A stretch of 64,000 bases of DNA from positions 1,984,001 to 2,048,000 of the forward strand of contig CP147779.1 of the NCBI GenBank assembly GCA_037308085.1. The letters run 5' to 3'. Position numbers and translations under genes: made by a program. Source of the DNA: Promethearchaeati archaeon SRVP18_Atabeyarchaeia-1 (GTDB taxonomy: Archaea; Asgardarchaeota; Atabeyarchaeia; Atabeyarchaeales; Atabeyarchaeaceae). This document shows, one piece after another, positions 4,391-41,335 of this stretch. Under the pieces are notes generated by a model. It saw only the letters and a list, made by a program, of their open reading frames with translations. It had not been told where the DNA came from and did not search any database. The first letter of the stretch is position 1; each line of letters starts with the position of its first letter.

Positions 4391-4418
4391 ATTGCGTATA
4401 AGTCGGTTTTTGTGAGGG
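4391..4418 (+). repeat. dif-like Xer site, copy 1
   Basis: ATTGCGTATAA-GTCGGT-TTTTGTGAGGG. Confidence 0.7.
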
Positions 4419-6330: not shown

Positions 6331-6358
6331 GATACGTATAAGTCGGCTTTTGTGCGGT
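6331..6358 (+). repeat. dif-like Xer site, copy 2
   Basis: GATACGTATAA-GTCGGC-TTTTGTGCGGT. Confidence 0.7.
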
Positions 6359-8393: not shown

Positions 8394-8421
8394 ACTGCAT
8401 ATAACTCGGCTTATGTGAAGC
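8394..8421 (+). repeat. dif-like Xer site, copy 3
   Basis: ACTGCATATAA-CTCGGC-TTATGTGAAGC. Confidence 0.75.
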
Positions 8422-13162: not shown

Positions 13163-13190
13163 CCTTCGAATAAGTCGGCTTATGTGAAGC
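13163..13190 (+). repeat. dif-like Xer site, copy 4
   Basis: CCTTCGAATAA-GTCGGC-TTATGTGAAGC. Confidence 0.75.
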
Positions 13191-22403: not shown

Positions 22404-22625
22404 AGGACCTCTTCGTGGTCGCGCATCCTAGGTTTTCGCATTTTCGTTCTTCATCAGACCCTTTCATGATTCGATAGGAAGATCGAGCACCAAGCTTCCA
22501 GTGATGGGCATATTCCCAGAGCGAACCTTCACGGATGACTTGAGGGTGAGGGGATCAGCCATGATGCAATTCAAGATTAGACCGGATTCGTTCTGTGCGG
22601 ATAGAGTGGGTGCCCAGCGTCTCTG

Positions 22626-23970
22626 TCAGAGGCAGACGCTATTCTCCTGTGTATCGCTGTGAGATCCTCTGGAGGGCAGCTTCTTCTGAAAATCGTATAC
22701 CGTAACTAGGTAGTTTGGAGAAACCATCTTAGCAAGTCTCTCGCTTGTTCTCGGTTCAGTGTATCTGTCTAGAGCTTGGAAACCGAGTGCTGCAAGGATT
22801 CCTACGCCCGGCAGCGCAGATGCAAGCCCACCAATGAGTCCTATGAGCGCAGATACTCCATACGATATGAAGCCTCTCTTGTGGCTGATATTCCTCGCAT
22901 CTCTCCAGATGCTATCAAGGATAGTCGATAACTCATGGCTGTTCTTCTCGACTACGTCAATTCTCCTTCCTTTTACCCCGCTAGGGAGTGCTTCTGTAAC
23001 TCTAAGCAACTGGTGGTCTTCATAGTCTTGTATCATTCTGCAGCAACTCTCGAAGGTCGTTGGATAGTGAATCACTTTGTTTAACACGAATCTGCCTATC
23101 TCATACACACTATCATCCGGTGTCCTCAAGTGATGTCTACCCAGGGTCCTTCGCATACCAGCCAGGAATTCTAGCCTGTAGTTGACGGTCAGTTTAAGTG
23201 GATCGACCGCTGGATAGTACAGACACCCAACAGCGACAAGCAAATCTAGCGCGTGGGTCGGATCATCAACGATCGCTTCTGTTACTTCTTCGATCAGTTT
23301 CTTGCTTCCGAACGACTTGGCTAGACTGTAGTATACGCGGTAATTGTGGATGATTCTGTCGGGTGGATACCATTTGGCTTGCTCCGAGCGCTCTATTTCC
23401 TGCTGAAATCCCAGGCCTGCCAATGTGTCGAATTCAGCCTGCCAATGTGTCGAATTCAGTGAAGTATTGCTTGACTCGCTTGGGTTTGAGGAGTACAGCG
23501 AATGAAGTAGGGGCGATTGGAGGCTTCAGCTCTTCAAAAAGGGGTCTGAGAAATTCAAGACTCTGATATCTTGTTGGCCGTTGAGTAAGAACAAACTGCA
23601 GTCTACCCGTTTGTTTGACGAAATCAATCAGTCTGTCAAGATCCTTGGATGTAAAGCCCGTTTCGCGATAAAGGTTGTCAAAACTCCTCCTGTCATTAGT
23701 TGGCTCTAATTGAATGACTGTTGAACCGTAGAAGGGGATGACACCCCACATTGAGAGACCGATGTTAATCCCTGCCAAGTGCTCCCTTGCATTTATGAAT
23801 CTCGCTAAGGGCGGGTATCTCTCAATCATACCTTTCTTGGCTTTTACCAAGAATCTGTCTAACTCTTCCTTCTCTCTATTGTCATAATCCAGGAGGAAAT
23901 CGTTGAATTCATTCATTTCATTCACCAAATGCTCTCGTTGATTTGTCCTTGCTATCGGTAACTGCCTCAA
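22626..23970 (-). pseudogene. Hypothetical ~440-aa gene frameshifted by a 22-bp tandem duplication
   Basis: GCCTGCCAATGTGTCGAATTCA occurs at 23415-23436 and 23437-23458. Removing one copy joins ORFs 23434..23970 and 22626..23423. Confidence 0.75.
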
Positions 23971-24268
23971 CTATGATTCAAAGCAGACTGATATCTTTGC
24001 ATCATCTGCGACTTGGACGGGCATTATTCAAGCCCTTCCAGCCTCCTCTCCGATCTGGTGTTGCGACTTGCGTTCCATTTGCACGTCACAGATTGAGAAC
24101 CGCGTTAATCTTAATAAAGTGTTTCAAGATATGTCACTCCAGACTGCATAAAGGGAGGGTCTAAGCGCGTCAAGATAAGAGACGGCTAAAGGATCAGTTA
24201 TGGCCAGCATTTGAGCGAATAAAGCGACTATGTTTTGTTCAGTAAGAACTTGCCTGAGGTAGATCAAA

Positions 24269-26938
24269 GTGGCAGGGATTGATGAGGACACGACTCGAAG
24301 AGAACTGGTCGAAAGAGCGCTACGAGATGCAAGATGGCCAGTCCTGGACTACTCTGGGAGCAAGAGTTACCGTACCGCCGCCGTGAGAGAGTATGAGACC
24401 GCACACGGACCAGCCGATTATATCCTGTTCTATGAGAGCGAAGCTCTTGCAGCGGTAGAGGCGAAGCGACTTGGTCTGGGCCCTCAAAATGTACTATCTC
24501 AGGCTAAGAGGTACGCAAAAGGCTATCAAGGAGGAAGTTTCGTTTTTGGTGAATTCCATCTCCCATTCATCTATTCCACCAACGGAATAAAGTTCTGGTT
24601 CCAAGATCTGAGACAAGAGACATCACGGTCACGTGAGATCTCAAAGTTCCACACCCCACTTGCGCTCAAAGAAATGCTCAATAATGACAGCACAGCTGCA
24701 GCCGAGTGGCTTCAACAGAACCCCAACGACAATCCGTTCCTGAGACCCTACCAGCGAGAATCAATAGCGGCAATCGAGTACGCCGTCCGAATGGGAAAAC
24801 GGAAGATGCTACTTGCGATGGCCACAGGAACAGGGAAGACCTTCGTGGCAGTGTCACTGATCTATAGGCTACTCAAGTCGGGCTTCGCCAAGAGAATCCT
24901 GTTCCTTGTTGACAGGCGTGCACTTGCCGCACAGGCTGTCGGTGCGTTTGCAGCCTTTGAGCCTGAGCCGGGTCTGAAGTTCGACCGTATCTACGAAGTC
25001 TACAGCCAGAGATTCAGAAGAGAAGATCTGCTCGAAGAGTCAAGTAAGTTCGATATTAATGTCATCCCTAATGAGTACCTGACTGATCCAAAGCCACATC
25101 ACTCTTTTGTCTACATCTGCACAATACAGAGGATGATGATTAACCTGTTTGGGAAAGCTTCAGTCTTCGAGCAGACCTCAGGTGAGCTCGAGGACGAGAG
25201 CGACGCGGACATCCTCCCCGTACCCATTCACGCGTTTGACTTCATAGTCGCCGATGAATGCCACAGAGGCTACACCTCAACCGAGGAAGGCAAGTGGCGA
25301 GAGGTTCTCGAGCACTTTGATGCCATCAAAATCGGTCTAACAGCTACGCCAGCTGCGCACACGACGGCCTACTTCGAAGACATAGTCTACAGGTACGACT
25401 ACGAGAGAGCCGTCCGCGAAGGCTATCTCGTCGACTACGACGCTATAGATATCAAGTCAGACATCACGATGAAGGGTCTCTTCCTGAAAGAAGGCGAAGA
25501 AATAACTTACATAGACAGAACGTCGGGTGTATCATCGTATGATGTGTTGGAGGACGAGCGCACGTTCGAGACGAACGAATTAGAGCAAAAAGCAGCAGCA
25601 CCCGACAGAAACCGGAGAATAGTAAAAGAGGTCGCCACGTACATAAGAAAGCAGGAGGAGGAACTGGGGCGCTTCCCAAAGACCCTGGTTTTTGCAGTCA
25701 ACGACCTGCCACACGTTTCCCATGCTGACCAACTGGTCAATATACTCAGAGACGAATTCGGCAGGGGAGATGCATTCGTCGAGAAGATCACCGGGAGCCC
25801 AACCGTCGACAGACCATTACAGAGAATACGAGAATTCAGAAATAGACCGCTCCCCGCGGTAGCAGTAACCGTCGACATGCTGACGACGGGAGTCGACATA
25901 CCCAAACTCGAAAACCTGGTATTCCTTCGACCAGTCAAATCGCGTATCCTGTTCACGCAGATGCTTGGACGGGGCACAAGGAAGTGCCAAGACATCAATA
26001 AGACCCACTTCACCGTATATGACTGCTTCGATGGGACGCTGCTCGAATACTTCAGAAGAGCAACCGAGTTCACGGCAGACCCCCCAACCAAACCCACACG
26101 GGCCTGGCGTGAAATCATCGACAGCATATATGGAAACAAGGACCGACAATACAATGCCAAGGTCCTCATTAGGAGGCTCAGGAGGATTGAAAAAGACGTC
26201 TCGGCGGAAGGCAGGGAGATGTTCGCAAAGTTTATTCCGGATGGCGATGTCGGAAGCTTCGCGCAATCGCTTCCCGAACGACTCCAGACTGATTGGACTA
26301 ATACAATGCTGATGCTAAGAAACCCCGAATTTCAGAACCTGCTGGAGGACTATCCGCGGGCCGACAAAACATTCGTTGTCGCTCAAATGGCTCAAGACAC
26401 GGTGACTTCGGAATACATGTTCAGAACCAACGATGGAAAAGCACTGAAACCAGAGGACTACCTCATAGCATTCGAGAGATTTGTCAAAGAGAATCCCGAC
26501 CACATCGAAGCTCTAAGGCTTTTGCTCAACAAACCAAAGGATTTCGGGACTCGCGAGCTGAGCGACCTCAGAAAGAAGCTTGAGGCTCGACCCGAGCACT
26601 TCACAGAGGAAAACTTACGCAAAGCATATCATAACGAACTTGCAGACGTAATATCAATCATCCGACACGCGGCAGCGGGCGAGCCACTCCTAACAGCAGA
26701 GGAACGAGTGGATCGAGCAATCGCAAAGATCAAGGGCAACAAGAAATTCAACCCAGAACAAGAGAAGTGGCTTGAATTAGTTCGAAACCACTCAATCAGA
26801 GAACTACTCTTGGAGGAGCGAGACTTCAATCTGCTACCGTTCTCCAGACATGGAGGGTGGTACAAGGCAAACGCTGTATTTCAGGGTGAACTGATTGCGC
26901 TTATCCATGAGATCAATGCACAGGTGATAACTGCATGA
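24269..26938 (+). CDS. hsdR: Type I restriction enzyme R subunit
   Basis: ADY...VEAK nuclease, MATGTGKT, DECHRG, GLTATP, QMLGRGTR, EcoEI-like C-terminus. Confidence 0.93.
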   Translation: MAGIDEDTTRRELVERALRDARWPVLDYSGSKSYRTAAVREYETAHGPADYILFYESEALAAVEAKRLGLGPQNVLSQAKRYAKGYQGGSFVFGEFHLPFIYSTNGIKFWFQDLRQETSRSREISKFHTPLALKEMLNNDSTAAAEWLQQNPNDNPFLRPYQRESIAAIEYAVRMGKRKMLLAMATGTGKTFVAVSLIYRLLKSGFAKRILFLVDRRALAAQAVGAFAAFEPEPGLKFDRIYEVYSQRFRREDLLEESSKFDINVIPNEYLTDPKPHHSFVYICTIQRMMINLFGKASVFEQTSGELEDESDADILPVPIHAFDFIVADECHRGYTSTEEGKWREVLEHFDAIKIGLTATPAAHTTAYFEDIVYRYDYERAVREGYLVDYDAIDIKSDITMKGLFLKEGEEITYIDRTSGVSSYDVLEDERTFETNELEQKAAAPDRNRRIVKEVATYIRKQEEELGRFPKTLVFAVNDLPHVSHADQLVNILRDEFGRGDAFVEKITGSPTVDRPLQRIREFRNRPLPAVAVTVDMLTTGVDIPKLENLVFLRPVKSRILFTQMLGRGTRKCQDINKTHFTVYDCFDGTLLEYFRRATEFTADPPTKPTRAWREIIDSIYGNKDRQYNAKVLIRRLRRIEKDVSAEGREMFAKFIPDGDVGSFAQSLPERLQTDWTNTMLMLRNPEFQNLLEDYPRADKTFVVAQMAQDTVTSEYMFRTNDGKALKPEDYLIAFERFVKENPDHIEALRLLLNKPKDFGTRELSDLRKKLEARPEHFTEENLRKAYHNELADVISIIRHAAAGEPLLTAEERVDRAIAKIKGNKKFNPEQEKWLELVRNHSIRELLLEERDFNLLPFSRHGGWYKANAVFQGELIALIHEINAQVITA

Positions 26939-28347
26939 GCGAAGTCGTGACGAAACTATGGGGATTCTGCAACACCCTAAGGCACGACGGCATAGGATAC
27001 GGCGACTACATCGAACAGCTAACATACCTGCTCTTCCTGAAACTCGCCGGAGAGAAAGGAGTAAAACTCCCAGGAGGCTGCACATGGAAAGACCTCAGAG
27101 CAAAATCAGGATCAGAACTACTCGACGCCTATATCGAAATTCTGCGCACCCTCTCAAGACAGAAGGGGATGCTCAAAGACATTTTTTCCGGCTCATTGTC
27201 AAAATTCCGAGAACCAGTGAACCTCAAACGCTTAATCGGACTCATAGATGAAACACAATGGACCGCGCTAGATGTCGATATCAAGGCACAGGCGTACGAA
27301 GGGCTCCTCCAGAAATATGCCTCTGAAGAAAAGGGAGCTGGACAGTATTTCACCCCTCGAGAAGCTATAAGGTGTGTGATTCGTTGCATAAGGCCAGATA
27401 TCATGGAAAAACCAGACTTCTCAATACATGATCCCGCCTTGGGCACTGCGGGTTTCCTGATCGGCGCGTATGAATGGATGATGGCTGAGACAAAGGAGGG
27501 AGCCCAACTTAGCAGGGAGGAACGGGAGCGTCTGCAGAAACATACATTCTCTGGATGCGAAATAGTCCAAGATACTCGTAGACTGGGACTCATGAACCTT
27601 TATCTGCATGAAATCGAAGCAGACATCTACTATGGAGACGCTCTAGCTGAAGGCCCCCACCTGTCAAAACGACACGATTGCATAATGACGAACCCACCAT
27701 TCGGGACAAAGGGTGCAGGAGAAATCCCCGTCCGTGAAGATTTCACGGTCAAGACGTCGAACAAGCAAATTAACTTTCTTCAGCATGTCATCATATCTCT
27801 GAAGCCTGGCGGGAGGGCGGCGATTGTGCTGCCAGATAACGTCCTTTTTGAGGAACATGCCGGTAGGCAAGTGAGAAAGCTTCTTCTGGCTGATTGTGAA
27901 CTCCACACAATTCTTAGACTGCCGATAGGCACGTTCACACCCTATTCATCGGGCGTCAAAGCTAACATCTTGTTCTTCCGCAAAGGCTCACCTACAAAAG
28001 AGATCTGGATCTACGACCTTCGAACCAATACTGAAAAGGTAACGATACGACATTCGCTGACCGCGAACTACTTCATGGATTTTGAAGCATGCTACAGCAT
28101 GAATCCGCGTAAGGAAACTGAAAGGTTCAAGCGATTCAGAGTCGAAGACATAATCAATCGGAACTATAGTCTTGACATTTCATGGCTGAGAGATGCGACT
28201 TCTGAGGATCCAACGAATCTTCCTGATCCTGAAGACTTGATTGGCGAAGCTTTAACGACTCTTCAAGTAGCTGTGGACGCTCTGACAGAACTGACCGCTA
28301 ATCTTGGTAGGAATAGTGCTAAGAACAAGGTCGAAAGAAATGGATGA
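26935..28347 (+). CDS. hsdM: Type I R-M methyltransferase subunit
   Basis: GAGQYFTPR, DPALGTAGFL, TNPPFG. 4-nt overlap with hsdR. Confidence 0.95.
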   Translation: MSEVVTKLWGFCNTLRHDGIGYGDYIEQLTYLLFLKLAGEKGVKLPGGCTWKDLRAKSGSELLDAYIEILRTLSRQKGMLKDIFSGSLSKFREPVNLKRLIGLIDETQWTALDVDIKAQAYEGLLQKYASEEKGAGQYFTPREAIRCVIRCIRPDIMEKPDFSIHDPALGTAGFLIGAYEWMMAETKEGAQLSREERERLQKHTFSGCEIVQDTRRLGLMNLYLHEIEADIYYGDALAEGPHLSKRHDCIMTNPPFGTKGAGEIPVREDFTVKTSNKQINFLQHVIISLKPGGRAAIVLPDNVLFEEHAGRQVRKLLLADCELHTILRLPIGTFTPYSSGVKANILFFRKGSPTKEIWIYDLRTNTEKVTIRHSLTANYFMDFEACYSMNPRKETERFKRFRVEDIINRNYSLDISWLRDATSEDPTNLPDPEDLIGEALTTLQVAVDALTELTANLGRNSAKNKVERNG

Positions 28348-29836
28348 GATATCGGAGAGATTAACGGACGAGAAAAGCGGCTCAGTTGACTTGCCCAAAG
28401 GCTGGATTAGAGTTTCTTTGGGAGACTATGTTTTCATTGCAGCCAGAATCGGATGGAGAGGTTTGAAGAAGAGTGAATACCTAAAAGAAGGACCACTATT
28501 CCTGGCGGTCAAGGACATTCGAGAGGACGGAACAATAGACTGGGATGGTATCACAGACCATCTAAATGATTTCAGATATTCTGAGTCCCCGGAAATACAG
28601 TTGAAAGATCATGATGTACTTGTCACAAAGGATGGAACGATCGGGAAAATAGGTTTCCTAGAAAGCGTTCCCTCCAAGGCAACAGTGAATTCCTCCATTC
28701 TGGTTGTGCGACCTTGTCTAGGGATTTTGCCAAAATTCCTGTTCTACTATTTTAGGGGTCCAGAATTTCAGGATATAGTTGAAGAAAAGGTTACCGGCAC
28801 TGCAGTGCCACACTTGTTCCAACACGACATTAAGAGATTTCAGCTAAATGTACCTCCCTTCGTTGAGCAAAAACGAATAGTCGCCAAAATCGAAGAACTC
28901 TTCCAAGAACTCCGTTCATCGGAACAGGGAGTCTGCAAAGCTATGCTTCTGGTGAAGCGATTCCACCAGTGGGTTTTCGAAGCGGCAGTTGTTGGAGAAC
29001 TTACGGCGGAGTGGAGGGAAGCTCATAAGAGTGACTCTGAATCAGCATCAGTTCTTCTCGAGAAGATAAGGGAGAATCTGAAAAGTGGTCTCGGCTCAAG
29101 GCGCGCGGAAAAGCCTCTAAGAGAAATAGAGTTACCTCGGCTCCCGGAATGTTGGGCATGGACGACAGTAGGTGACATTTCAGAGATGGCTCAGTATGGA
29201 TATACCTCAAGTTCCAGCTCAGACCCCATTGGACCGAAGATGCTCAGAATAACGGATATCCAACACGATACTGTAGACTGGAGAGCTGTGCCATACTGCA
29301 GGATAGCAGATCAAGAGAAGCGGAAATTCCTGCTAGGCGAGGGGGATCTTGTTTTTGCGAGAACTGGGGCAACGGTCGGAAAGAGTTATCTCATTAAAGG
29401 CGAAATACCCGAGGCCATCTTCGCTTCGTACCTTATCAGAGTCGTAATTTCCCGTCTCATTAACAAGGAATTTGTCTACTATTTCTTCCATTCCGATATG
29501 TACTGGTCGCAGATACGAGCGAGGCAAGTAGGGACCGGTCAACCCAATGTGAATTCCCGGATGTTATCAGAAATAAACCTGCCCTTGCCGCCGCTTCCCG
29601 AGCAGCAGGAGGTGGTGCAGATGGTCAAAAGCTACCTGTCAATGGTCCAAGAAATTGAGAGGAACATTGGTCTCGCCCTTCAACACATAGAGAAAGCACG
29701 GAAAAGCATCCTGAAGAGTGCGTTTGAAGGCGGACTGGTTCCCCGTGACCCAAGTGATGAACCGGCTTCGATTCTATTGGAACGAATGAAGGCTAAACGT
29801 GCAGCCAGCAAAAAGAGGGATATTTCCTCGAAATGA
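28340..29836 (+). CDS. hsdS: Type I R-M specificity subunit
   Basis: Two TRDs (LPKGW..., LPECWAW...) with PPFVEQKRIVAKIEE and PPLPEQQEVV spacers. ATG 28340 overlaps the hsdM end. Confidence 0.93.
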   Translation: MDEISERLTDEKSGSVDLPKGWIRVSLGDYVFIAARIGWRGLKKSEYLKEGPLFLAVKDIREDGTIDWDGITDHLNDFRYSESPEIQLKDHDVLVTKDGTIGKIGFLESVPSKATVNSSILVVRPCLGILPKFLFYYFRGPEFQDIVEEKVTGTAVPHLFQHDIKRFQLNVPPFVEQKRIVAKIEELFQELRSSEQGVCKAMLLVKRFHQWVFEAAVVGELTAEWREAHKSDSESASVLLEKIRENLKSGLGSRRAEKPLREIELPRLPECWAWTTVGDISEMAQYGYTSSSSSDPIGPKMLRITDIQHDTVDWRAVPYCRIADQEKRKFLLGEGDLVFARTGATVGKSYLIKGEIPEAIFASYLIRVVISRLINKEFVYYFFHSDMYWSQIRARQVGTGQPNVNSRMLSEINLPLPPLPEQQEVVQMVKSYLSMVQEIERNIGLALQHIEKARKSILKSAFEGGLVPRDPSDEPASILLERMKAKRAASKKRDISSK

Positions 29837-30381
29837 GGGCGGCAGCCTTATGAAGAGACTAAGAGGAAAGACAGGCAGAACGCACAAGCCTATGAGGCAA
29901 GCGGTATTGTTTGAAATGAGGCACACTCTCGACAAGTCGATTTGCCCCAGACAAACTTGGTGGTTGGAGTGCTGTCGAACAGAGGCTACGCAAGATTGCT
30001 AGAATGCCTTACTGGGATTAGGATGTCTTCGCCAGCGTCGGTATTTTATCGGTTGCACCTTTTCTGTCTCGGATCTTAGGGGCAATGGAGCTCTCTCGAA
30101 TAACTACTTCTGATTAACGAAGGCTACCGTCTTTAGGACTAGGGGAAAACTGGAATCTCAGCGCAGATGTTCCAAGCTATCCTCAGTACATGATTTGCTT
30201 GGAACAGATAATCGCTGGGTGTGTATGCGCTTTCCAAAGGCGGGTGAACTGCAATTCGGATCATTATCAAATCGTCAATGGAGCGAATTCACTCGAGGAC
30301 CATGCCTAATTATTGTGGTGATGATAGGGGTCTTTTTAATCCTTGAGGGTTACTCCCTGATGGTAGCTGGGATCTAGATGG

Positions 30382-30861
30382 TTGAAAGGAAAGGTGGATG
30401 TAGCCTTGCTCACAGAAGAAGAGAACGAGTGGCAAGTAGCCGACGATTTGAAGGAAGCCCGAATGAAGCGGTGGCAGGAGTGGTCTCGAGCCCACAAGAA
30501 GGAACGAAGCGAGTACAGCAAAGTCCAGAATATGAGGCAGCGTGATGAGGTTCATGAATGGCTTGGTGGCAGTTGTTTTGTCTGTGGCTCCAGAAATGCA
30601 TTGGAGATTCATCATCTGCGCGACAGACATGGAACGGCTAGCCGGGTCTTCTCAATCTCGGAGGCGAGAAGGAATCCTAGAGGGCTTGTGTTGCTGTGTT
30701 TCAAACACCACAAGGTTATCCACGCAGGCAATCTCAAGTCCTACAGACTGCTCAAATGGCTCTTCGAAGTGGCCAGAGCATCTTCATACCGCATGAACCT
30801 GCGCGAGCTGCTACCAAAGCAAATCGGAAAGCGAAGTCGCACACAGGTCTTCAGTACTTGA
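30382..30861 (+). CDS. HNH endonuclease-like protein
   Basis: CFVCGS...LEIHH...LVLLCFKHHKVIH. Confidence 0.65.
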   Translation: MKGKVDVALLTEEENEWQVADDLKEARMKRWQEWSRAHKKERSEYSKVQNMRQRDEVHEWLGGSCFVCGSRNALEIHHLRDRHGTASRVFSISEARRNPRGLVLLCFKHHKVIHAGNLKSYRLLKWLFEVARASSYRMNLRELLPKQIGKRSRTQVFST

Positions 30862-31080
30862 AATCCACCAAGGAAGCCAGCTCTTTCCCCGAATGCTTCC
30901 GCGCCTGGAGTGTCCCACCCTCGAAGACGTCTACCCAGCGATCGCCTATTTAAATAGCCTAACAGCTATTCAACCCTGCCCGACCGAAGCTTCCAGAAAT
31001 CGCAACGCATTTGTCTTCTTCATGATGCGTGGAATGCCCCCAAGTGCATATCGTATAATGCCTCCAATACCGTCTACGTC

Positions 31081-31953
31081 TCATGTTCTGATCAGGCCTA
31101 GGCGTGCCAGTTCTTCTTCGGTGTCTCGCATGTCTATTGCCTCGTATATTGCAGTTGTGTCTCGGTTCTTGTGGTGTAGTAAGTTCTGCAGGTATTCCGT
31201 TCTGACGTTTCTGCGTCTCATGGCGACAGCGAATGTGTGTCTCAACATGTGTGGTGAGATCCTCTTGGTTATCCCGCCTTTTCTGGCAACCCTTTCTACG
31301 GTGTATTGAAGCCCTCTCCTTGAGAGGTGGATAAGGAGATCGTCGCTTTCGAGTCGTTGCTCTTGGACATGGCGTCTGATGAGTTTCGCCGCGTCTTCGT
31401 CAATAAGGGCGGGGACAATGATGTAGGGGCGTACGGCACCTCGCTTCAGCCTAACATTAAGATGACTGGTTTCGAGGTCGATATCTTTCACCTTCAGACT
31501 GAGAAGTTCTCCCATTCGCATTCCTGTGCTTACGAGCAGGTTGACAATGAGCTTTTCTCTGGGACTTGAAGCTGCGCTTAGGAACCTTTCTTTCTCTTCC
31601 TCGGTCAGGTAGATTGGGTTTCGGGGCGGCCTTGCCATCCTGGCGGTTCTGGGCATGGGGCTCCCGGTGATTCTGCCGCTGTCAACCATGTACTGAAAGA
31701 AGGATGAGAGGCATGCTCTCGTGGCGATTATTGATGATCTCCTGTACGCGTGCTTGTGGACTCTGTCGCCGCTCGGCTTGCTGAGGTATTCTATGAAGGC
31801 TGCCAGGTCCTGCCTTGTGATCTTCTTGATGTTCCTGTCGTCTGCGAGGAAACGCCGGAACATTCCCAGGGTGTATCCGTATTGTTTGGGTGTTAGGTCG
31901 GAGGTGTCTCTGAGCTTGAGCTGACCTAGGAAGGCTTCAATTTCCTGGTTCAT
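31081..31953 (-). CDS. Xer-family tyrosine recombinase
   Basis: 290 aa, N-terminal SAM-like domain, TGMRMGEL (R), SPHMLRH (HxxR), LLHH, TTAIY (Y). Confidence 0.9.
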   Translation of the reverse strand: MNQEIEAFLGQLKLRDTSDLTPKQYGYTLGMFRRFLADDRNIKKITRQDLAAFIEYLSKPSGDRVHKHAYRRSSIIATRACLSSFFQYMVDSGRITGSPMPRTARMARPPRNPIYLTEEEKERFLSAASSPREKLIVNLLVSTGMRMGELLSLKVKDIDLETSHLNVRLKRGAVRPYIIVPALIDEDAAKLIRRHVQEQRLESDDLLIHLSRRGLQYTVERVARKGGITKRISPHMLRHTFAVAMRRRNVRTEYLQNLLHHKNRDTTAIYEAIDMRDTEEELARLGLIRT

Positions 31954-31976
31954 GGGTCTGCAACCCCGTTATTTTT

Positions 31977-32004
31977 GCTTCGCAAAAACTGTATTATGTG
32001 CAGT
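31977..32004 (-). promoter_or_regulatory. dif-like site in the recombinase promoter (inverted, different spacer)
   Basis: Minus strand ACTGCACATAA-TACAGT-TTTTGCGAAGC, between a TATA-like CTTAAATAG (~32021-32029) and the ATG at 31953. Confidence 0.75.
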
Positions 32005-32063
32005 ACCTGTGCCCGAGCCCCTATTTAAGGGCTTTTCCCCCCACCCTCCACAGCCAAAAACCC

Positions 32064-32840
32064 CTACCTTCGGCGCCCACCCGGCGGCCGGAGGCGCGCC
32101 TCCCCAAGCTGCTTCGCCAGGTCACCCTCCTCGAGCCTATGGCCACATGACGGGCACTTCTCGTTGACGTGCAGGAACTCGAGCAGGTGCACCCTGTGCG
32201 CAGCAGCCCCACAGAAGGGGCACCAGGCAAGCAGATCACCCTCCCCAAACCCAAGGTGGCAGACCATGCAGATCCGCAGCCCATCACCCTGCGCCACGGG
32301 GGGCGCCGCCTCGGCCGCTTTGCCGGGCGAAGGCGGGGCTCCGACGCCCGCCGCAAGGTTTTCCCCGCAGCTCCAGCAGTAGCCGGCATCCTCGTTGGCT
32401 GCGCCGGCGCCGCAGCGCGGGCAGGCGCGCCCCTGGACGGCAGCCTCATCCGCCTTGGAGGGCGCTCCCCAGCGCTCAAGCTCAAAGAGCTCCGCGCTGC
32501 CCTTATCCGCGAAGAACATCCTCATCTGCTCGTACTGGTTTTTCAAACTCTTCTTGGTGTCCCCCACGACCAGGAACCTGGCGGCGCATCTGTTTCCGCC
32601 GGAACCTGCAATGACCACGAAGACCGTGTCAAGCGTATCCCCGCCGCTCTCCGTGTATACCACACCTAACCTGCCAGACTCGTAGAGGCGGGTTCCCGCC
32701 CGATACCCTGCGAGGTTGTTAAGCTTCCCATAGAATTGGGTGAAGGCGTCAATGACCCTGCTCACATCGACACCGGGCCTAAGCCTTAGGCTGACCTCCT
32801 CCCACAGGGGCGGCTCCCTCGGAAATCGACCAATAGACAA
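32064..32840 (-). CDS. Zn-ribbon plus RING-like domain protein
   Basis: CPRC...CWSC; CMVC-x12-CPFC-x4-H-x2-H-x10-CPSC. Confidence 0.75.
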   Translation of the reverse strand: MSIGRFPREPPLWEEVSLRLRPGVDVSRVIDAFTQFYGKLNNLAGYRAGTRLYESGRLGVVYTESGGDTLDTVFVVIAGSGGNRCAARFLVVGDTKKSLKNQYEQMRMFFADKGSAELFELERWGAPSKADEAAVQGRACPRCGAGAANEDAGYCWSCGENLAAGVGAPPSPGKAAEAAPPVAQGDGLRICMVCHLGFGEGDLLAWCPFCGAAAHRVHLLEFLHVNEKCPSCGHRLEEGDLAKQLGEARLRPPGGRRR

Positions 32841-33282
32841 CTCTCACAACCCCTCTGTCAGAGAGTTAGAACAATGCAGAGATAAGGTTTGCCGTCTCCG
32901 CCCTGCCGCCTGAACTCACCCTGCGCAGGCGACAAGCGCTTCGCGATTGCGGGCAATAAGCGGCGGACTCTGTATTACATTACCCCCATTGAGTGGCATT
33001 TCCATAAATGAAAGTATAGGGCTATTTGTAGAAGTTCATGGGAGAAGTCGGCGGATCACCCGAAACCTAATTAAATAGCCTGCTAATTATACAAACCGCG
33101 GTCTGCACTTATTGGCGCAGCCTAGGGAAGGGAAGCCTACCTGCGGTGGAAGCGCCAGGCCCACCCACAGGGAGACCTCAGTCCAAGTTGCAGCCTCTTC
33201 GAGGCAGCCGCAAACCATTATATGCACCCTCCAACGTACCTTCGAAGTAGCCAGCAGGTGAGAGGAAAGGGGGCTATCCAAG

Positions 33283-33948
33283 ACGGCGAATAGGAAGGGG
33301 AAGGCCATCCCAGCGCTTGCCCTGCTTGCCCTAGTCTTTCTATCCTCCTCCGCGGTAACCACGTCGCGGGCTGCCGACTACACTAAGGTCGGCGTGAAGG
33401 TGGGGGACAGAGCAGACTATGCAACAGACTACTGGCAGGCTGACCGCCTGGCAATTGAGATCACAAGTGTAGTGGGGGCCGTGGTGTACGCAACGATGAC
33501 AGACTACTGGGCCAACGGCACAGTGGTGAACGTCAACACCTACCATGGCAACATCTCAGCCGGCGGCCTGGAGTTCCTCTACTGCGCAAACCTGCAGAAA
33601 GGCGACAAACTCTACGAAGGATCCACCGGCAAGTGGTTCAACGACACCTTCTCAATGGAGCTCGCCGGCGAGACGAGAACCGTGAACCTGCTGCTCCAAT
33701 TTGGCGATCACGCCTACTTTGATCAGGCAACTGGGATCTTAGCCAAGCTCGTCTCCCTGCCAGGCGAGTGGAACTACACCATGATCTCAACGAACATGTG
33801 GGGGCCTGGCATGGTGGATCCGGTGGCGCTAGCGATCGTTGGTGGAATCGCAGCGATAGCGACAGTGGTAATTGTAGCGGCGGTCAAACTCAAGAAGGCA
33901 GGGAAGTTCGGCGTAGCCGAGCCGACGTTCGGACCCAGGCGCCGCTGA
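33283..33948 (+). CDS. Surface type I membrane glycoprotein, paralogue 1 (probable ACG start; track start 33394)
   Basis: AADYTKVGVKVGDRADY...YFDQATGILAK...NYTMISTNMW plus TM. The signal peptide is encoded upstream of 33394. Confidence 0.75.
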   Translation, partial: TANRKGKAIPALALLALVFLSSSAVTTSRAADYTKVGVKVGDRADYATDYWQADRLAIEITSVVGAVVYATMTDYWANGTVVNVNTYHGNISAGGLEFLYCANLQKGDKLYEGSTGKWFNDTFSMELAGETRTVNLLLQFGDHAYFDQATGILAKLVSLPGEWNYTMISTNMWGPGMVDPVALAIVGGIAAIATVVIVAAVKLKKAGKFGVAEPTFGPRRR

Positions 33949-34209
33949 CCTGCTTTTTTGTGGGTTGGATCTGCCATCCATCACCACCTATTTTCCTTTC
34001 ATGAAGAGTAAAGGTCGGGGCTGACTCCTTGCAAGGAGCCCTCTTTCGTCTTTCAAAGACGCTCCAGTGGGCGCGATGAGAAAAAGCGGAAACCAAGCGG
34101 GGGCTAACGGCCCAACTGCGGAACCAAATCGTTTTATATAGGTGCTTCTAGACAATCTAGACAATCCTCATCATAAGATAACACAACTAAGGGGGATGCG
34201 TCGACTATC

Positions 34210-34830
34210 ATGTCTCGGATAAGTAATAAGGTCACTTTCAGTTTTGCATTAATCGCGCTCGTATTGTTCTCTTCGTCAATCATAGCCACGTCGCAGGCTG
34301 CTGACTACGCCAAGATCGGCGTCAGAGTAGGAGACAGAGCAGACTATTCCATCGCGAACCCTAACCACGACCGGCTACGGCTAGAAGTGACAGAGGTTAC
34401 AGGAGTCTTCGTTAATATCACCATCACAGACTACTGGTCCAACGGCACGGTGGTAGATTTTACCACTGCACGCGGCAACGTTTCAAACGGCGGATTGGCG
34501 GAGGTTCTGCTGTGCGGGGGTCTGCAGGCAGGTGACCTACTTTACCCAGGAGCAGGCATGTACTTCAATTACACCGTAAGCATGGAGATCGCTGGAGCAA
34601 TGAGAACCGTGAATGAGATCATTATCTCAGGCGACCAACACGTATACTACGATCAGGAGACCGGAATATTCGCCAAAATGGCTCACCCGGGTCACTCGAA
34701 CGTTACCATGATCTCGACAAACATGTGGAGACCCGTTGATCCAGTGGTGCTGATTCTCATTGGCGGCGGAGGCGCAGCGGTGGCGGCCATCGTGGTGGCG
34801 GCTATCATCCTTCAAAGGCGCAGGAAGTAG
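34210..34830 (+). CDS. Surface type I membrane glycoprotein, paralogue 2
   Basis: Signal peptide, AADYAKIGVRVGDRADY, YYDQETGIFAK, C-terminal TM followed by RRRK, several N-x-S/T sequons. Confidence 0.8.
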   Translation: MSRISNKVTFSFALIALVLFSSSIIATSQAADYAKIGVRVGDRADYSIANPNHDRLRLEVTEVTGVFVNITITDYWSNGTVVDFTTARGNVSNGGLAEVLLCGGLQAGDLLYPGAGMYFNYTVSMEIAGAMRTVNEIIISGDQHVYYDQETGIFAKMAHPGHSNVTMISTNMWRPVDPVVLILIGGGGAAVAAIVVAAIILQRRRK

Positions 34831-34890
34831 TAGATGAGTGGCGGCAAGCTGTGGAGCGAGCAGCCCCGCAAACTCCTCCCCTAGCCTCTT

Positions 34891-35180
34891 TTTTTCTGCC
34901 AATTCCTTCGCCGACAAAGGGGAGGAGCAACAGGCCAGCCTCGATTTCTACTCTATCTCCCCGTGGTCCTCTTGCAGACGTCGATCAGCTGTCCGCTATT
35001 CAAGGTGCACATTCGCGCTAGACATATGCGATGCGATGGTCTCCCATATAATTAGGCAGTGGGTCGAGGTACGGACACCTGCCGCCATTGATTCAGTTTA
35101 TTCGTCCCTTGCCGCCCGTTCTGAGGGCGAAGAGGTACATGTGGTGAGCCTCGTTGGCAAGAATATGGATCGAGCTGCAA
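34891..35180 (+). repeat. Diverged ~290-bp direct repeat of 36010-36307, including the first 9 codons of the arrestin gene
   Basis: Shared TTTATTCGTCCCTTG.CGCCCGTTC.GAGGGCGAAGAGGTACATGTGGTGAG..TCGTTGGCAAGAATATGGAT. Confidence 0.85.
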
Positions 35181-35337
35181 CCAGCATCCCCTGCCAGATA
35201 GGCGCCCCCCCGAAGGAGGAGGGGGAGGAGAAGGCCGCTAAGCCAGCGAGCTGCAGCCTGAAGAGTATAAATACAGCCTACAACAAACATCGTAGGCAGC
35301 GCGAGCTGGAACACCAGCAGGAGGATGATGCGAGAGC

Positions 35338-35946
35338 GTGAACAGGAAAACAGCTTCAATCTTGGCTCTTCTGGCGACGCTACTTGTCTGTTCCACAATC
35401 GTGGCGCCCTCAACGGCCGCCGACTACTCGAAGATCGGAGTCAAAGTGGGTGATAGGGCAGACTACTCCATCCAATACGCCGAATGTGACCGGCTGCGGG
35501 TAGAGGTCACAGAGGTAACAGGGACCTTCGTAAACCTGACCTTGACCTATCACTGGTCGAATGGCACAGTGGTAGACCTTATCCATTATGCAGGAAACGT
35601 ATCAAGTGGTGACTTGGCAGACGCCGTGGTATGCGGGGGCCTGCAGGCTGGCGACCCACTCTGGCAGGGTGGCTACCTGTTCTTCAGTAGTACAGTCAAC
35701 TTGGAGATCGCGGGAGAAATGAGAACAGTTAATGACCACACCGATGGTGGCAGCCACTATTACTTCGATCAGGAGACTGGAATCCTGGCGAAGGCTGTGG
35801 CCCCAGGTGGCTCTAACTACACCATGATCTCAACGAACATGTGGGGAGCGGCTAACCCAATGGTGCTGATTCTCATTGGCGGCGGAGCGGCAGTGATCGC
35901 CCTAGTCGCAGCGATTGCGGTACTGGTGAGTAGACGCCGAAAGTAG
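35338..35946 (+). CDS. Surface type I membrane glycoprotein, paralogue 3
   Basis: Same motifs as paralogues 1 and 2. Confidence 0.8.
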   Translation: MNRKTASILALLATLLVCSTIVAPSTAADYSKIGVKVGDRADYSIQYAECDRLRVEVTEVTGTFVNLTLTYHWSNGTVVDLIHYAGNVSSGDLADAVVCGGLQAGDPLWQGGYLFFSSTVNLEIAGEMRTVNDHTDGGSHYYFDQETGILAKAVAPGGSNYTMISTNMWGAANPMVLILIGGGAAVIALVAAIAVLVSRRRK

Positions 35947-36280
35947 GACTCAGAGTCATGCCTAAGGAGAGAGACTCGAAACAACAATATCGCGCTCTTC
36001 TCCATCTTTTTTTTCTGCCAGGTCCTTAGGCGGCAAATGGGAGGAACACCGGGCTAGCCTCAATGCTCAATGTGTACCCTATCTCCCTACGACCCTCTTG
36101 CGAACTTCGATCAGCTGTCTACGATTCGAGGCGCATATGCGCGCTAAATATATGTGGTGCGACGTTTTCCTGTATCATTAGGCGGCGGGGCCCAGATATG
36201 GACCTTTGCCTCCTTCGATTCGGTTTATTCGTCCCTTGTCGCCCGTTCAGAGGGCGAAGAGGTACATGTGGTGAGTTTCG

Positions 36281-37402
36281 TTGGCAAGAATATGGATTGA
36301 GATGCAAAAGCAAGTCTACTTGCTTGGCGAGGAGGTAAGCGGCATTGTGCACGCCTCCTTGGACAAGCCAATCTCCCAGAGAGGCGCCGCAATACATTTG
36401 ATAGGTAAGGAGAGGACCGAAATCAGCTACCAACAGGCGGTCCAGCCAGGTCATACCCAGCAAACGGGGATAGGGGCTGTAATCCAAGGCTACCAAAGAA
36501 CAGGTCAACCCACTAGTACCCAGCAGACGCGCACGGAAACTGCGGTCCAAGAGTCTGAGTTCTTGCATCAGGAATATCCGATACCCTTGCCGGTAGATGA
36601 GAAGGGAAAGTTTAGTCCTGGAGAGCACGCCGCCCCGTTCAAATTCATGCTGCAGCAAGGTTTGCCGGCAAGCTACGCGGGCCGCCATGCAAGAATCCAG
36701 TACTTAGTAGAGGCGAAGATCGACGTTCCTATGGGTATGGATGTGAGGCAGTCATCTCAGTTTACCGTCGCATCGGCAAATCTTCAGCCCCTCCAATCTG
36801 GACCGGTTACCGCCTACTCCGACTCTTGGGGAAACCCGCAGAGCGCTGGCATCAGCTTCACTATCGAAAGAAGCCAATACGGGAAAGGCGAAGTTGTGAG
36901 TGGCAAGTGCTCCTTCAGAAATCCATCCTCGAAAGACTTGAGGAAGATTGACATCCATCTTAGATGGGTCGAGACGGCAAGCGCTCAAAACCAGAGAGCC
37001 ACAACCGAGGTAATTAGACAGGATTCCCAAATCCCGGTAGGGGGCAGAGTGCTTCAAGGTGAGACACCCTTCAGCATAAACGTACCCGGGCAAGCCCCAC
37101 CTACCTACGAGGCAACACTCTCAAATGTAAGATGCATTTTGAGCGCAAGCATGGACATCGCCATGGGGCTTGATGTCGCTGCAAGCCAGACGATTAGTAT
37201 CGTCGAAAACGCGGGACCTGGGGCGCCTCCGCCTCCCCAACCTCCAGTCAGGCAAGGCGAAGTACCTTGGACAGGCCCAGCGCAGACTTATCAGCCAGCC
37301 AACTACCCCCAACCAGCCGGCGCAGGCGCTTATTGCCCACACTGCGGTGCTAGCATCAAATCAGGCGAACAGTACTGCCCCATGTGCGGCTCCAGATTAT
37401 GA
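36281..37402 (+). CDS. Arrestin/Vps26-fold protein with Pro-rich linker and double Zn ribbon
   Basis: VYLLGEEVSG, PFKFMLQQGLPASYAG...IQYLVEAKID (arrestin-N), YGKGEVVSG (arrestin-C), CPHC...CPMC. Confidence 0.75.
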   Translation: MARIWIEMQKQVYLLGEEVSGIVHASLDKPISQRGAAIHLIGKERTEISYQQAVQPGHTQQTGIGAVIQGYQRTGQPTSTQQTRTETAVQESEFLHQEYPIPLPVDEKGKFSPGEHAAPFKFMLQQGLPASYAGRHARIQYLVEAKIDVPMGMDVRQSSQFTVASANLQPLQSGPVTAYSDSWGNPQSAGISFTIERSQYGKGEVVSGKCSFRNPSSKDLRKIDIHLRWVETASAQNQRATTEVIRQDSQIPVGGRVLQGETPFSINVPGQAPPTYEATLSNVRCILSASMDIAMGLDVAASQTISIVENAGPGAPPPPQPPVRQGEVPWTGPAQTYQPANYPQPAGAGAYCPHCGASIKSGEQYCPMCGSRL

Positions 37403-37700
37403 AGAACGGTGCAACGGCACATGGAGAATGTCGAGAAGGAGCCTCCAAGGGAATGGCGTGAACTCTCTTCGCTGATCCATCGGTTCACGGCGGCTGTGAA
37501 TAAGCAGCCATCTTCAGCTTGACCTGTGTCTCTTACTTTGGGTCCATGATTTCGTTGGCAGTTTGTGTGCTCTTTTATCGCTTTTGTCGGCGAGAAGCGA
37601 AATCTCCCCTGGCTCGGAGAGCAGGTCTAAGCATATGCTTAAATACGGGGGTGAGCCATACTCGGCTGCAATTCGAGATAAAGTGTGGAGCGAGTTTTCT

Positions 37701-38351
37701 GTGAGGAGGAGCCGAGCTTATTCGCTTGTAGCGCTCTCGATACTCATGGTTCTTGTGGCATCCACTACCCCTGCTGCCGCCGCGGACTACGCAAAGGTTG
37801 GCGTCAAAGTAGGGGACATTGCAACGTACAGGACGGCGATGTCGGGCTCAGCTGTTAACAAGACGGTGTTTCTCGTATATGGGATTGTTGGAACCTCCTT
37901 TTACATCAACTATACGTATTTCCTCCCGAACGGCGCAGTGTCTAGCCAGGGTCAACTTGTCGGGGACACTGTGACTGGGGGCATGTTGAATGTCTTGGTG
38001 ACGAAGAATCTGACGACTAATGACCGGATCTATTCTGGCTCACCGATAAAGATTAATGACTCGGGCATATTGATCTTCGGTGGTATGTCTAGAATCATCA
38101 ACCATGCGAGGATTTCCGGTGGATTGTTTGAATTTTGGTGGGACAAGGACACAGGTCTCGTCGTCAAAATGAACCTCTACTCCGTTGCCTGGCTTAACTT
38201 AACTATGATTTCAACGACAGCTTGGTTTCCCGTGGCTCCCCCGGGCTTGTTCGATAACCCCTTAGCGTTGCCGCTTCTGGTAATGAGCGCTCTTGTAGTC
38301 GCGCTTCTTGTAGCGATACTTGTTGTAGCTAGACGCAAGAAGCACAGATGA
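37701..38351 (+). CDS. Surface type I membrane glycoprotein, paralogue 4 (more divergent)
   Basis: AADYAKVGVKVGDIATY, WWDKDTGLVVK, NLTMISTTAW plus TM. GTG 37701 gives the signal peptide. Confidence 0.75.
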   Translation: MRRSRAYSLVALSILMVLVASTTPAAAADYAKVGVKVGDIATYRTAMSGSAVNKTVFLVYGIVGTSFYINYTYFLPNGAVSSQGQLVGDTVTGGMLNVLVTKNLTTNDRIYSGSPIKINDSGILIFGGMSRIINHARISGGLFEFWWDKDTGLVVKMNLYSVAWLNLTMISTTAWFPVAPPGLFDNPLALPLLVMSALVVALLVAILVVARRKKHR

Positions 38352-38636
38352 GGCGAGTGCGGAATGCGCGCTCGAGGACTCTTTCTTGGAATGCTGTTAG
38401 TTTAACCTTCTCTGCCTGATCACCGTGCTGAGTTATGATAAGGTCATCATTCCAAAATCCCGAGAGATAGGTCACACTCCTGCTAAGCTTATCTGGCGAT
38501 ATGCTGAGGCAGCAAGAAAGAACGCGTGCGAAAAGGATGAAGCGAATAGATAATAGGAGAGAAGAGATCTATGACAACATGGAACAGTTTAAAGCCCTGC
38601 TAACCATGATAAGAATTCAAGTGTGAGGTTCTTGAA

Positions 38637-39755
38637 ATGTTGAAAAGTGATCCTGAAGATGTTTATCGTAAGCTGCGCAAGCACTTGGATGAGTTTCCGA
38701 TCGGTTTTCCTTCCACCAAGTCGGGTGTGGAAATCCGCCTTCTCAAGTACTTCTTTACGCCCGAGGAAGCGGAGATAGCGATGCGTCTCACTATTCTACC
38801 GCAAACGCTTGAGCAAATACACAAGCAACTTGAGAAGACAGGCCTTTCCATCGGCAAGTTAGAGCGCACCCTAGCTGAGATGGGGAGAAAGGGAAGCATA
38901 TACCTGGTGAAAGGCAGGGAAGGGAGCTACTACCTGAACGCGCAGCTCGCAATAGGAATGTATGAACATCAAGTAAACAGGCTTACCAAGGGATTCGTGG
39001 CGGACATGCACCAGTACTTTGACGAGTCTTTTGGAAAAGAAATAACGCGGCCCGGCAGCTCGCAGATGCGCATCATACCAGTAGACAAGAGTATCACCCC
39101 GGAGTACAAGGTTGAAACCTTCGAGAATCTAAAGAGTATTATTGAAGATTTCAGCGGGCCAATTAGCGTCGCTAACTGCATCTGCCGCCAAGGGAATGAT
39201 CTCATTGGGCAGCCATGCAAGCAAACCTCCCTCCGAGAATCCTGTCTCCAATTCGGATCCGCCGCACGAATGTACGTCGACGAAGGGCGCGGCCGGCTCA
39301 TAACAAAAGCGGAGACGCTGGAAATCTTGAAGAAGGCTCAAGAAGATGGGCTAGTCCTCGAAATGATGAATACGCTGAAACCAGCGGCCATATGCACCTG
39401 CTGCCGAGACTGCTGCGGGTACTTGACAACCGTCAAGAGACTTCCCCGCCCTGCCGAGTTCCTCCCGTCAAACTACTACGTGCAAGTCGACGCTGAGTCC
39501 TGCACAGGCTGCGAGACCTGCGTCAACGTATGCCCCATGGGCGCGCGAACCGTCAAGGATAACGTGTCGGAGGTCGACCTTGGGCGCTGCATCGGCTGCG
39601 GAGTATGCGTCCCCGCATGCACAGCAGGTGCCACCAAGCTGGTCAAGAAAGAGAAGATCATTGCCCCACCCAAGGACACATCTGCCATGTACATGGAGAT
39701 CCTGAAGAACAAGACGCAGATGAAGAGAATGGAAGCTAAGAAGGGAGACAATTAG
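38637..39755 (+). CDS. 4Fe-4S dicluster (ferredoxin) domain protein with N-terminal HTH
   Basis: CTGCETCVNVCP and CIGCGVCVPAC; CICR and ICTCCRDCC motifs. Confidence 0.85.
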   Translation: MLKSDPEDVYRKLRKHLDEFPIGFPSTKSGVEIRLLKYFFTPEEAEIAMRLTILPQTLEQIHKQLEKTGLSIGKLERTLAEMGRKGSIYLVKGREGSYYLNAQLAIGMYEHQVNRLTKGFVADMHQYFDESFGKEITRPGSSQMRIIPVDKSITPEYKVETFENLKSIIEDFSGPISVANCICRQGNDLIGQPCKQTSLRESCLQFGSAARMYVDEGRGRLITKAETLEILKKAQEDGLVLEMMNTLKPAAICTCCRDCCGYLTTVKRLPRPAEFLPSNYYVQVDAESCTGCETCVNVCPMGARTVKDNVSEVDLGRCIGCGVCVPACTAGATKLVKKEKIIAPPKDTSAMYMEILKNKTQMKRMEAKKGDN

Positions 39756-39928
39756 AGGCAAGTAAGAAGGCATCTCGCGGCTTCACCCATGATTTCAATG
39801 CATCTCAGAACAGCGAAGCTAGTCTTCTCGTCCTCAACAAAGCAATCATATTTCATTCCTTTGACGAAATTCAAAGCGCGTTTCATGTTCTCAAGGATGT
39901 CGCGGACGTAAATGGAGAGATCTCGCAT
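39752..39928 (-). pseudogene. Truncated HepT/DUF86 toxin (58 aa)
   Basis: MRDLSIYVRDILE...AVLRCIEIMGEAA, then a stop. No Rx4H motif. Coupled to the MNT gene by TGATG. Confidence 0.7.
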
Positions 39929-41322: not shown

Positions 41323-41335
41323 GCTTGCCGCCGCC

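Follow-up and report, generated by a model that had tools for sequence, protein, structure and literature searches.

Does a recombinase gene of an Asgard archaeon carry its own recombination site within its promoter region? The question is raised by a xerA-like gene in the stretch of DNA analysed here, a 64,000-nt window (G000:C1:1984001-2048000) of the closed 2,808,651-bp chromosome of SRVP18_Atabeyarchaeia-1 (genome G000). The gene (P0001; 31081..31953, minus strand, 290 aa) is preceded on the same strand by an 11-6-11 dif-type core site at 31977..32004, ACTGCACATAA-TACAGT-TTTTGCGAAGC, whose left arm (ACTGCACATAA, 31994-32004), spacer (31988-31993) and right arm (TTTTGCGAAGC, 31977-31987) occupy positions -51 to -24 from the xerA ATG, leaving a gap of 23 nt (31954-31976) before the start codon at 31953. 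Throughout, we call this xerA-proximal site class A, and we call class B the sites with an STCGGY spacer ([GC]TCGG[CT]) that form an array elsewhere in the window. The interpretation we favour, at about even confidence, is that gene and site form a vertically inherited xerA-dif module, in which the site would serve XerA as its one core site for resolving dimers and probably also as an operator for autorepression. Backing for this interpretation comes from the uniqueness of the spacer class, the vertical conservation of the site with the gene, the recombination geometry, the trace of an arm swap and precedents in other organisms.

Comparison with the array showed that the arms of the class-A site match those of array copy 3 (class-B site 3) at 10/11 and 9/11 positions, with another spacer and on the opposite strand. 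An earlier note made from the sequence alone had described these matches, together with the arms, the spacer, the minus strand and the 23-bp distance from the ATG, and the description was confirmed in full. Taken in the strand orientation of the array, the class-A arms match those of copy 3 at 15/22 positions, versus 19/22 when inverted. An arm pattern allowing up to three mismatches matched two places in the window, the class-A site and copy 3 (expected, 0.00), and two or more matches were reached in 0/100 shuffles. Genome-wide, the class-A site was the only good-armed site among 3340 TACAKY hexamers, scoring 31.0 bits with the runner-up at 4.3. Class A is unique in the chromosome for its spacer class, and class B is multi-copy, with four intact and two decayed members.

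The four intact class-B sites lie on the plus strand: site 1 at 4391..4418 (ATTGCGTATAA-GTCGGT-TTTTGTGAGGG; 24.2 bits), site 2 at 6331..6358 (GATACGTATAA-GTCGGC-TTTTGTGCGGT; 23.0 bits), site 3 at 8394..8421 (ACTGCATATAA-CTCGGC-TTATGTGAAGC; 31.7 bits) and site 4 at 13163..13190 (CCTTCGAATAA-GTCGGC-TTATGTGAAGC; 29.1 bits). All of them have the arm core CRNAWWA / TTWTGYG in common with the class-A site, which upholds the proposal that this site ties the enzyme to the array. A loose expression of the core gave 6 hits over both strands of the whole 2.81 Mb genome, corresponding to five sites (class A and class-B sites 1-4), all within 28 kb. This count is only modestly high because order-3 Markov genomes (n = 10) gave a mean of 2.2 hits with a range of 0-5, and the weight rests not on the count but on the grouping of the sites within 28 kb, the extent of arm identity and the location next to xerA. 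A half-site matrix scored the five sites at 23-32 bits and the next best genome position at 18.8, a comparison that is circular for the five sites because the matrix was built from them. Among 5151 STCGGY hexamers, two further places had recognisable arms, at 17.7 and 11.6 bits, before scores dropped to -1.7. These are the decayed class-B sites, both far from the array, at G000:C1:2232171-2232198 (plus strand; ACTGAACACAA-CTCGGC-TTATGTGAATC; 17.7 bits) and G000:C1:1539060-1539087 (minus strand; GCTGTGCATAA-CTCGGC-TTTTATGATCC; 11.6 bits).

The recombinase has a two-domain build, with a Pfam Phage_integrase domain (1.3e-27) and a SAM-like N-terminal domain. Its closest solved chains were 5hxy and 4a8e, the XerA proteins of T. 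acidophilum and P. abyssi, with which its catalytic R, K, HxxR, H and Y align; the catalytic set is intact. P0001 ranked first among five matches to the archaeal XerA model in the genome, the rest being longer integrases or a fragment (94, 94, 73 and 28 bits), and it is the sole XerA-grade recombinase of the genome. A protein database yielded 15 more orthologues (P0002-P0016) at 56-68% identity. Of 83 metagenome relatives, 80 were retained, all at 24-39% identity and with no close orthologue among them, and viral contigs gave two related loci at 28-39% identity, with no close relative. A role for the enzyme as recombinase of an hsdS shufflon was also considered and rejected: no inverted pair in 18500-32100 joins hsdS (28304-29836) to another hsdS piece, and the best inverted pair there (44 nt, 80%) lies within one open reading frame (ORF).

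We then looked upstream of orthologous genes, where the earlier note held that a genuine site ought to recur. The collection holds three genomes of the class: G000, the closed genome G002, and G001, a metagenome-assembled genome ('Promethearchaeati archaeon LC30', 94% complete, 280 contigs). The 11-6-11 site upstream of xerA is kept in both other genomes of the class (3/3 with G000) and also in G009, a distant Asgard genome of another family. It reads ggtACTGCACATAA-TACATC-TTATGTGCAAT, 23 nt before the ATG, in G002 (XerA 67% identical to P0001), GGCTCGCATTA-TACATC-TTATGTGCAAT, 35 nt before the ATG, in G001, and GTTGCGCAAAA-CCTGGA-TTTTGCGAGAA, 11 nt before the ATG, in G009 (XerA 32% identical). 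Alignment of the four regions left the invariant columns C-CA--A N6 TT-TG-G, and the TAA-N6-8-TTA core appeared as TAA-N6-TTA in G002, TAA-N6-TTT in G000, TTA-N6-TTA in G001 and AAA-N6-TTT in G009.

Conservation is concentrated on the site. G000 and G002 share 18 consecutive identical bases (ggt, then the left arm, then four bases of the spacer), versus 9/23 identical positions in the leader between site and ATG, and 4-6 of the 6 spacer bases are kept in the class genomes, whose XerA proteins are 67-77% identical. G001 and G002 are identical over spacer and right arm (17/17), match at 5/11 positions of the left arm and do not align further upstream; such a pattern is what an earlier crossover inside the site would produce, though this is a single case. 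Among eight more distant Asgard homologues (29-34% identity), a matching site was found in one, G009. The strict pattern CRCAWWA-N6-TTWTGYG, run on 157 retrieved loci, matched 12, every one from G000, G001, G002 or G009. When 33 regions upstream of xerA were scored for generic 11-(6-8)-11 palindromes, the sites of G002 and G009 were found and those of G000 and G001 were missed; the score was reached by 0/100 shuffles for G002 and 43/100 for G009, and this scoring is too blunt for such sites.

The DNA around the gene is flexible. The block to the left of xerA has just one kind of gene common to G000 and G002, distant Type I restriction homologues. It measures ~40.7 kb in G000, between xerA and the core gene at 1,972,347-1,974,383, where it contains class-B cassettes, a Type I system, a TBP gene and further ORFs of unknown kind; in G002 it measures ~30.7 kb and contains a class-B pair followed by McrBC and a different Type I system. 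To the right of the site, similarity between the two genomes runs for ~50 bp through the TATA region and then ends, and core genes resume after 1.4 kb (G000) or 5.8 kb (G002). Gene, site and ~50 bp of promoter are a conserved islet within flexible DNA, as would be expected of a vertically kept module.

The class-B segments of this flexible DNA are single-cargo cassettes without an integrase in G000. In G002, two class-B sites 9.6 kb apart enclose 15 ORFs without an integrase domain, and comparison of 25 island ORFs with PHROGs gave a single weak DnaA-like match (6.4e-5), in the G002 segment. The class-B sites have no flanks or neighbours conserved between G000 and G002 and number 2-6 copies, and G001, an incomplete assembly, gave 0 matches at up to two mismatches. 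The G000 cargo includes a HerA_C-type ATPase (4628-6103; 1.5e-220), a Vgb-lyase-like propeller protein (6533-7966), and a PFL-like glycyl-radical enzyme together with TnpB (8565-12835), with no activase seen.

Next, we examined the promoter context of the class-A site. A TATA-like TTAAATA lies at 32022..32028 on the minus strand, -75 to -69 from the xerA ATG, where the aligned G002 sequence is CAAAATA. Upstream of 1622 long G000 ORFs, the motif TTWAWAW shows a modest excess in this region, with 35 in bins -85 to -75 and ~5 per bin elsewhere. The order of TATA box, site and start codon given in the earlier note is therefore sensible, with the box itself a plausible TATA box of xerA. A Shine-Dalgarno-like GGGG follows the site at 31964..31967 (minus strand, -14 to -11); GGTG/GGAG/GAGG motifs peak sharply at -18 to -10 across the genome, and GGTG or GGGG runs stand at comparable spots in the upstream regions of G002, G001 and G009. 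The predicted transcription start, ~25 nt past the TATA-like box at about -46, would fall within the left arm of the site. The leader RNA showed no notable fold (z = -0.67), and tRNA and Rfam scans near the site gave no tRNA gene and no Rfam family. A listing of public runs gave eight, from two studies, and no RNA run. Four of the DNA runs (X2-X5) were compared as assembled contigs, which lose rare forms; on 22001-42000 no joint or loose end at 31977-32004 was among those listed, and one 5991-base contig of run X2, which may be the source sample, spans the site unaltered.

These features suggest how the module could work. Two XerA monomers would bind the two 11-bp arms; on a chromosome dimer, two class-A sites would synapse, and XerA would cut at the edges of the 6-bp spacer, resolving the dimer. 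Because class A is the sole site of its spacer class, dimer resolution would proceed without deletion or inversion. With the TATA-like box on one side of the site, the ribosome-binding site on the other and the predicted start within it, bound XerA should also hinder transcription of its own gene. The same enzyme probably also binds the class-B sites, 19-28 kb away, since they have the arm core in common with class A; they would make up a spacer-compatibility group of their own, associated with exchangeable cassettes. That unlike spacers would block crossover with the cassette sites is an expectation from general knowledge of tyrosine recombinases. Among the roles listed in the earlier note, a native dif site and an autorepression operator are both live, and sequence alone does not separate them; an attI-like role found no support.

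We also considered the position of the site relative to replication. Atabeyarchaeia genomes have been reported to show a bidirectional skew pattern (PMC11291895). The class-A site lies at 2.016 Mb of the chromosome, and two orc1/cdc6 genes, at 639-640 kb (the best match) and 675-676 kb, have antipodes at 2.04-2.08 Mb, 28-65 kb from the site, that of the best gene being at 2.044 Mb, 28 kb away. Cumulative GC skew has its global minimum at ~0.21 Mb, its global maximum at 1.37 Mb and a secondary maximum at ~2.075 Mb, so the two pointers to the terminus, skew and orc1/cdc6 position, disagree.

Beyond the class, the strict arm-core pattern was present in 124/301 sampled Asgard genomes. It takes the form CACATAA-TAATAA-TTTTGTG in four listed genomes of genus g25, CACAAAA-CTCTTT-TTTTGCG in three listed genomes of genus g13, and CACAAAA-ATWAAG-TTTTGCG in three genomes of genus g28, two more showing variant spacers (ATACAG and ATATAG). 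In these genera the sites are single, have a genus-specific spacer and lie on contigs other than the xerA contig. Because the arm core recurs as genus-conserved single sites, it looks like a general Asgard dif motif, and the usual Asgard arrangement looks Thermococcales-like, with dif apart from xerA, families f1 and f8 being gene-adjacent. Multiple sites were seen in two genomes of family f29: G288 has seven pattern matches per strand, with CGCAAAA/TTTTGCG arms in five sites, and G267 has five sites, most of them with CACAAAA and TTTTGTG or a near variant. No two of their spacers are alike; several of the sites lie less than 2 kb from the end of a contig, and the xerA contig has none. G009 carries two extra sites with other spacers.

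Several observations weigh against the module interpretation. The global skew maximum lies 0.63 Mb from the class-A site. Counted by arms alone, the site is not single-copy, with four intact and two decayed same-core sites elsewhere. The arms are complementary at 6/11 positions in G000, versus 10/11 in G002; the G000 core reads TAA-N6-TTT, not TTA; and the generic palindrome scan passed over the G000 site, the best upstream palindrome lying elsewhere and being equalled by 40/100 shuffles. P0001 reached 183.1 bits on its best NCBIfam model, XerA_Arch (NF040815 equivalog), under the 220 cut-off, and the orthologues of G001 and G002 scored 173 and 183 bits, most other Asgard XerA proteins lying at 220-310; it is filed only as XerA-like, though it would probably work like XerA. 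A XerA-grade match occurs in 146/301 sampled Asgard genomes, so a housekeeping role is assumed rather than demonstrated. The strict pattern adjoins xerA at 1/30 canonical Asgard loci, 0/80 metagenome loci and 0/23 distant genome_contigs loci (L007-L029), and a xerA-adjacent site is not general in Asgard; the conservation sample is small, with three class genomes and one distant one. Lastly, class-B sites flank integrase-less segments, as Xer-exploiting elements do at host dif, so that a class-B site could be the true dif.

The last of these points leads to the main alternative, which we regard as a real if minority possibility, namely that XerA binds the class-A site and represses its own promoter there without recombination, the working dif being a class-B site. 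Placement over the predicted start, at -51 to -24 with the TATA-like box on one side and the Shine-Dalgarno-like run on the other, is what an operator would show, and dif1 of T. acidophilum is bound yet not recombined in vitro by XerA (PMC11840125, citing Jo 2017). The canonical TAA-N6-TTA is moreover found in class-B sites 3 and 4 and not in the G000 class-A site, and both the G000 cassettes and the 9.6-kb segment of G002 are placed as Xer-exploiting elements would be expected at host dif. Sites in 2-6 copies without conserved flanks or neighbours would nevertheless be awkward for resolution, and class B was absent from the search of the incomplete G001 assembly. The class-A site, for its part, keeps exact 11-6-11 recombination geometry and 4-6/6 spacer bases at 67-77% XerA identity, and the G001 arm swap resembles a past crossover within it. 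The dif-type module, with operator function probably added, is the reading that we retain.

Could the gene instead be the integrase of a mobile or once-mobile island, with the site as an att remnant and no part in chromosome maintenance? We consider this unlikely. The gene does border a 30-40 kb block whose contents (Type I systems, McrBC, cassettes) differ wholly between G000 and G002, its product falls below the XerA cut-off and is 30-34% identical to other Asgard XerA proteins, and 155/301 Asgard genomes lack a XerA-grade match. Yet the chromosome holds no partner site of the same spacer class, so nothing is excisable, and xerA is syntenic in the two closed genomes though the supposed cargo differs entirely. 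The protein is short (290 aa), its site is of simple Xer type without arm-type repeats, viral contigs gave two distant loci and no close relative, no tRNA gene is nearby, and no joint or loose end at the site was listed among the contigs of the four runs, a form in which rare variants are lost. Still less probable is an integron-style acceptor, at which class-B cassettes would enter beside the recombinase gene, the attI-like role of the earlier note. The site does adjoin that gene and shares arms with the cassette sites, but no cassette abuts it: the nearest cassette site is 18.8 kb off, on the 3' side of xerA. Its spacer class occurs once in the genome and differs from the cassette spacers at 4-5/6 positions, it is inverted relative to the array, and insertion there would part the TATA box from xerA; on the integron-integrase models TIGR02249 and NF011946 the protein reaches 87.7 bits (cut-off 265) and 64 bits (cut-off 435). 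Chance resemblance, or a decaying relic without function, is scarcely credible. An expectation of ~2.2 loose cores per genome and the 6/11 arm complementarity in G000 would allow it, but 0/100 shuffles reached two arm-pattern matches, place, geometry and strand are kept in 3/3 class genomes and G009, and the 18 consecutive bases shared by G000 and G002 stand amid a diverged leader.

How far the arrangement is new can be judged against known systems. The published plan of archaeal dif, 11-bp imperfect inverted arms around a 6-bp spacer (PMC2958812; PMC11840125), is matched by the class-A sites of G000, G002, G001 and G009; TAA-N6-8-TTA is named as the most conserved archaeal dif feature (PMC11840125). 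XerS/difSL of streptococci and lactococci offers a lone Xer-type recombinase gene directly beside its own dif-like site, xerS being described as adjoining this site in the introduction of PMC2958812, and the conserved site studied here likewise stands immediately upstream of a lone xer gene (at 23 nt from the ATG in G000 and G002, 35 nt in G001 and 11 nt in G009). P0001 is not XerS, however (65.6 bits; cut-off 267), and difSL is bacterial, located at the terminus and FtsK-dependent, whereas archaea are described as lacking FtsK (PMC8371274). Two archaea, Haloferax volcanii and Halobacterium salinarum, have a putative dif, a dif-like imperfect inverted repeat, reported upstream of the xerA gene or operon (Yamaura et al. 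2025, PMC11840125). Those haloarchaeal sites are predictions from a TAA-N6-8-TTA search, near SMC-dependent domain boundaries; unlike them, the class-A site sits between the TATA-like box and the start codon, alongside a second, multi-copy spacer class.

In Thermococcales (P. abyssi, T. kodakarensis), dif has the same 11-6-11 plan with AT-rich inner arms, that of T. kodakarensis being TTTTGATATAA-TGTACC-TTATATGACAA (PMC11840125), but it lies apart from xerA in the termination region (PMC2958812), and its arm core is GATATAA versus CRCAWWA in class A. The dif1 site of T. acidophilum, a second XerA-binding site without recombination in vitro according to PMC11840125, is the model for a site acting only as operator. 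The integrase-less gene modules bounded by Xer sites in Acinetobacter (pdif modules) and IMEX look like the best analogue of the class-B cassettes; unlike them, pdif sites serve the XerC/XerD heterodimer and are mostly on plasmids, and the class-A site bounds no module.

For self-repression, Tn3 and gamma-delta give a textbook case, in which the res recombination site lies over the recombinase promoter and the recombinase represses its own gene; these differ from class A in using a serine recombinase and a three-subsite res on a transposon. Gene-adjacent dif is already known, and the class-A site would be such an arrangement newly seen in this Asgard lineage, most likely the enzyme's own target. 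A full-text search (Asgard and XerA) gave no paper with either term in its title or abstract, and a published study of mobile elements in complete Atabeyarchaeia genomes makes no mention of 'xer'; from these two sources no Xer/dif description for this lineage emerged.

The point worth following is the presence of two conserved spacer classes on one arm core, which belongs mainly to the array. We tentatively, and with considerable doubt, consider a two-tier XerA system, in which a unique promoter dif would serve dimer resolution and self-throttling and the STCGGY class, found across genera, would serve cassettes, both used by the same enzyme. The STCGGY tier would then capture, stack and release integrase-less cassettes in the hypervariable defence island by xerA. 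If true, the lineage would possess an archaeal equivalent of integrons and pdif modules driven by Xer, with a spacer code separating housekeeping from cassette traffic. The favoured module by itself would provide a concrete, testable Xer/dif pair for Asgard archaea; its arm core CRCAWWA-N6-TTWTGYG can help to locate replication termini and to recognise Xer-dependent mobile DNA in Asgard genomes, and the promoter-overlapping site would suggest a simple way in which an archaeon that lacks FtsK might limit a recombinase that also sees nearby cassette sites.

Further features were observed in and around the flexible DNA. The TBP gene of the left block (20370-20909, minus strand, 179 aa; Pfam TBP 3.2e-31) lies between a ResIII/Methylase_S ORF and a YgjP-like fragment and is missing from the equivalent part of G002. 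At 23415-23458 a 22-nt unit is exactly duplicated in tandem, and nearby, contigs of runs X2, X3 and X5 skip 133 bp at 23748-23882. Contigs of X3 and X4 run from 33771 straight to 35815, omitting 2043 bp, with 32 letters shared; this is a deletion between tandem paralogues (33394-33948, 34210-34830 and 35338-35946), and strains therefore differ in copy number here. Three ORFs at G002:C1:2041074-2044933 are 94-98% identical in protein sequence to ORFs at an unrelated position, G000:C1:2343117-2345544, neighbouring core genes being 67-88% identical, which suggests a mobile element recently exchanged between genera. One of the three adjoins a TnpB-like gene just upstream of the G002 class-A site.

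Two observations concern other recombinase loci. At locus L005 (G000:C1:168463-169075), near the global GC-skew minimum, a truncated tyrosine recombinase has a 180-aa open frame that covers the N-terminal domain and the beginning of the catalytic one, followed by a stop; an AT-rich 11-6-11 site, CTTCAATATAA-TGATAT-TTATATGTGCA, lies ~110 bp upstream, and the locus may be a dead second xer-dif module. Upstream of xerA in family f21 (loci L048-L072), the 11-nt TTTGACGACAT or a near variant lies 20-35 nt before the xerA start in an orientation that varies by genome, and some f21 genomes have an additional dyad, GGATAAT-N8-ATTATCC, farther upstream; this motif could be an invertible or palindromic promoter element.

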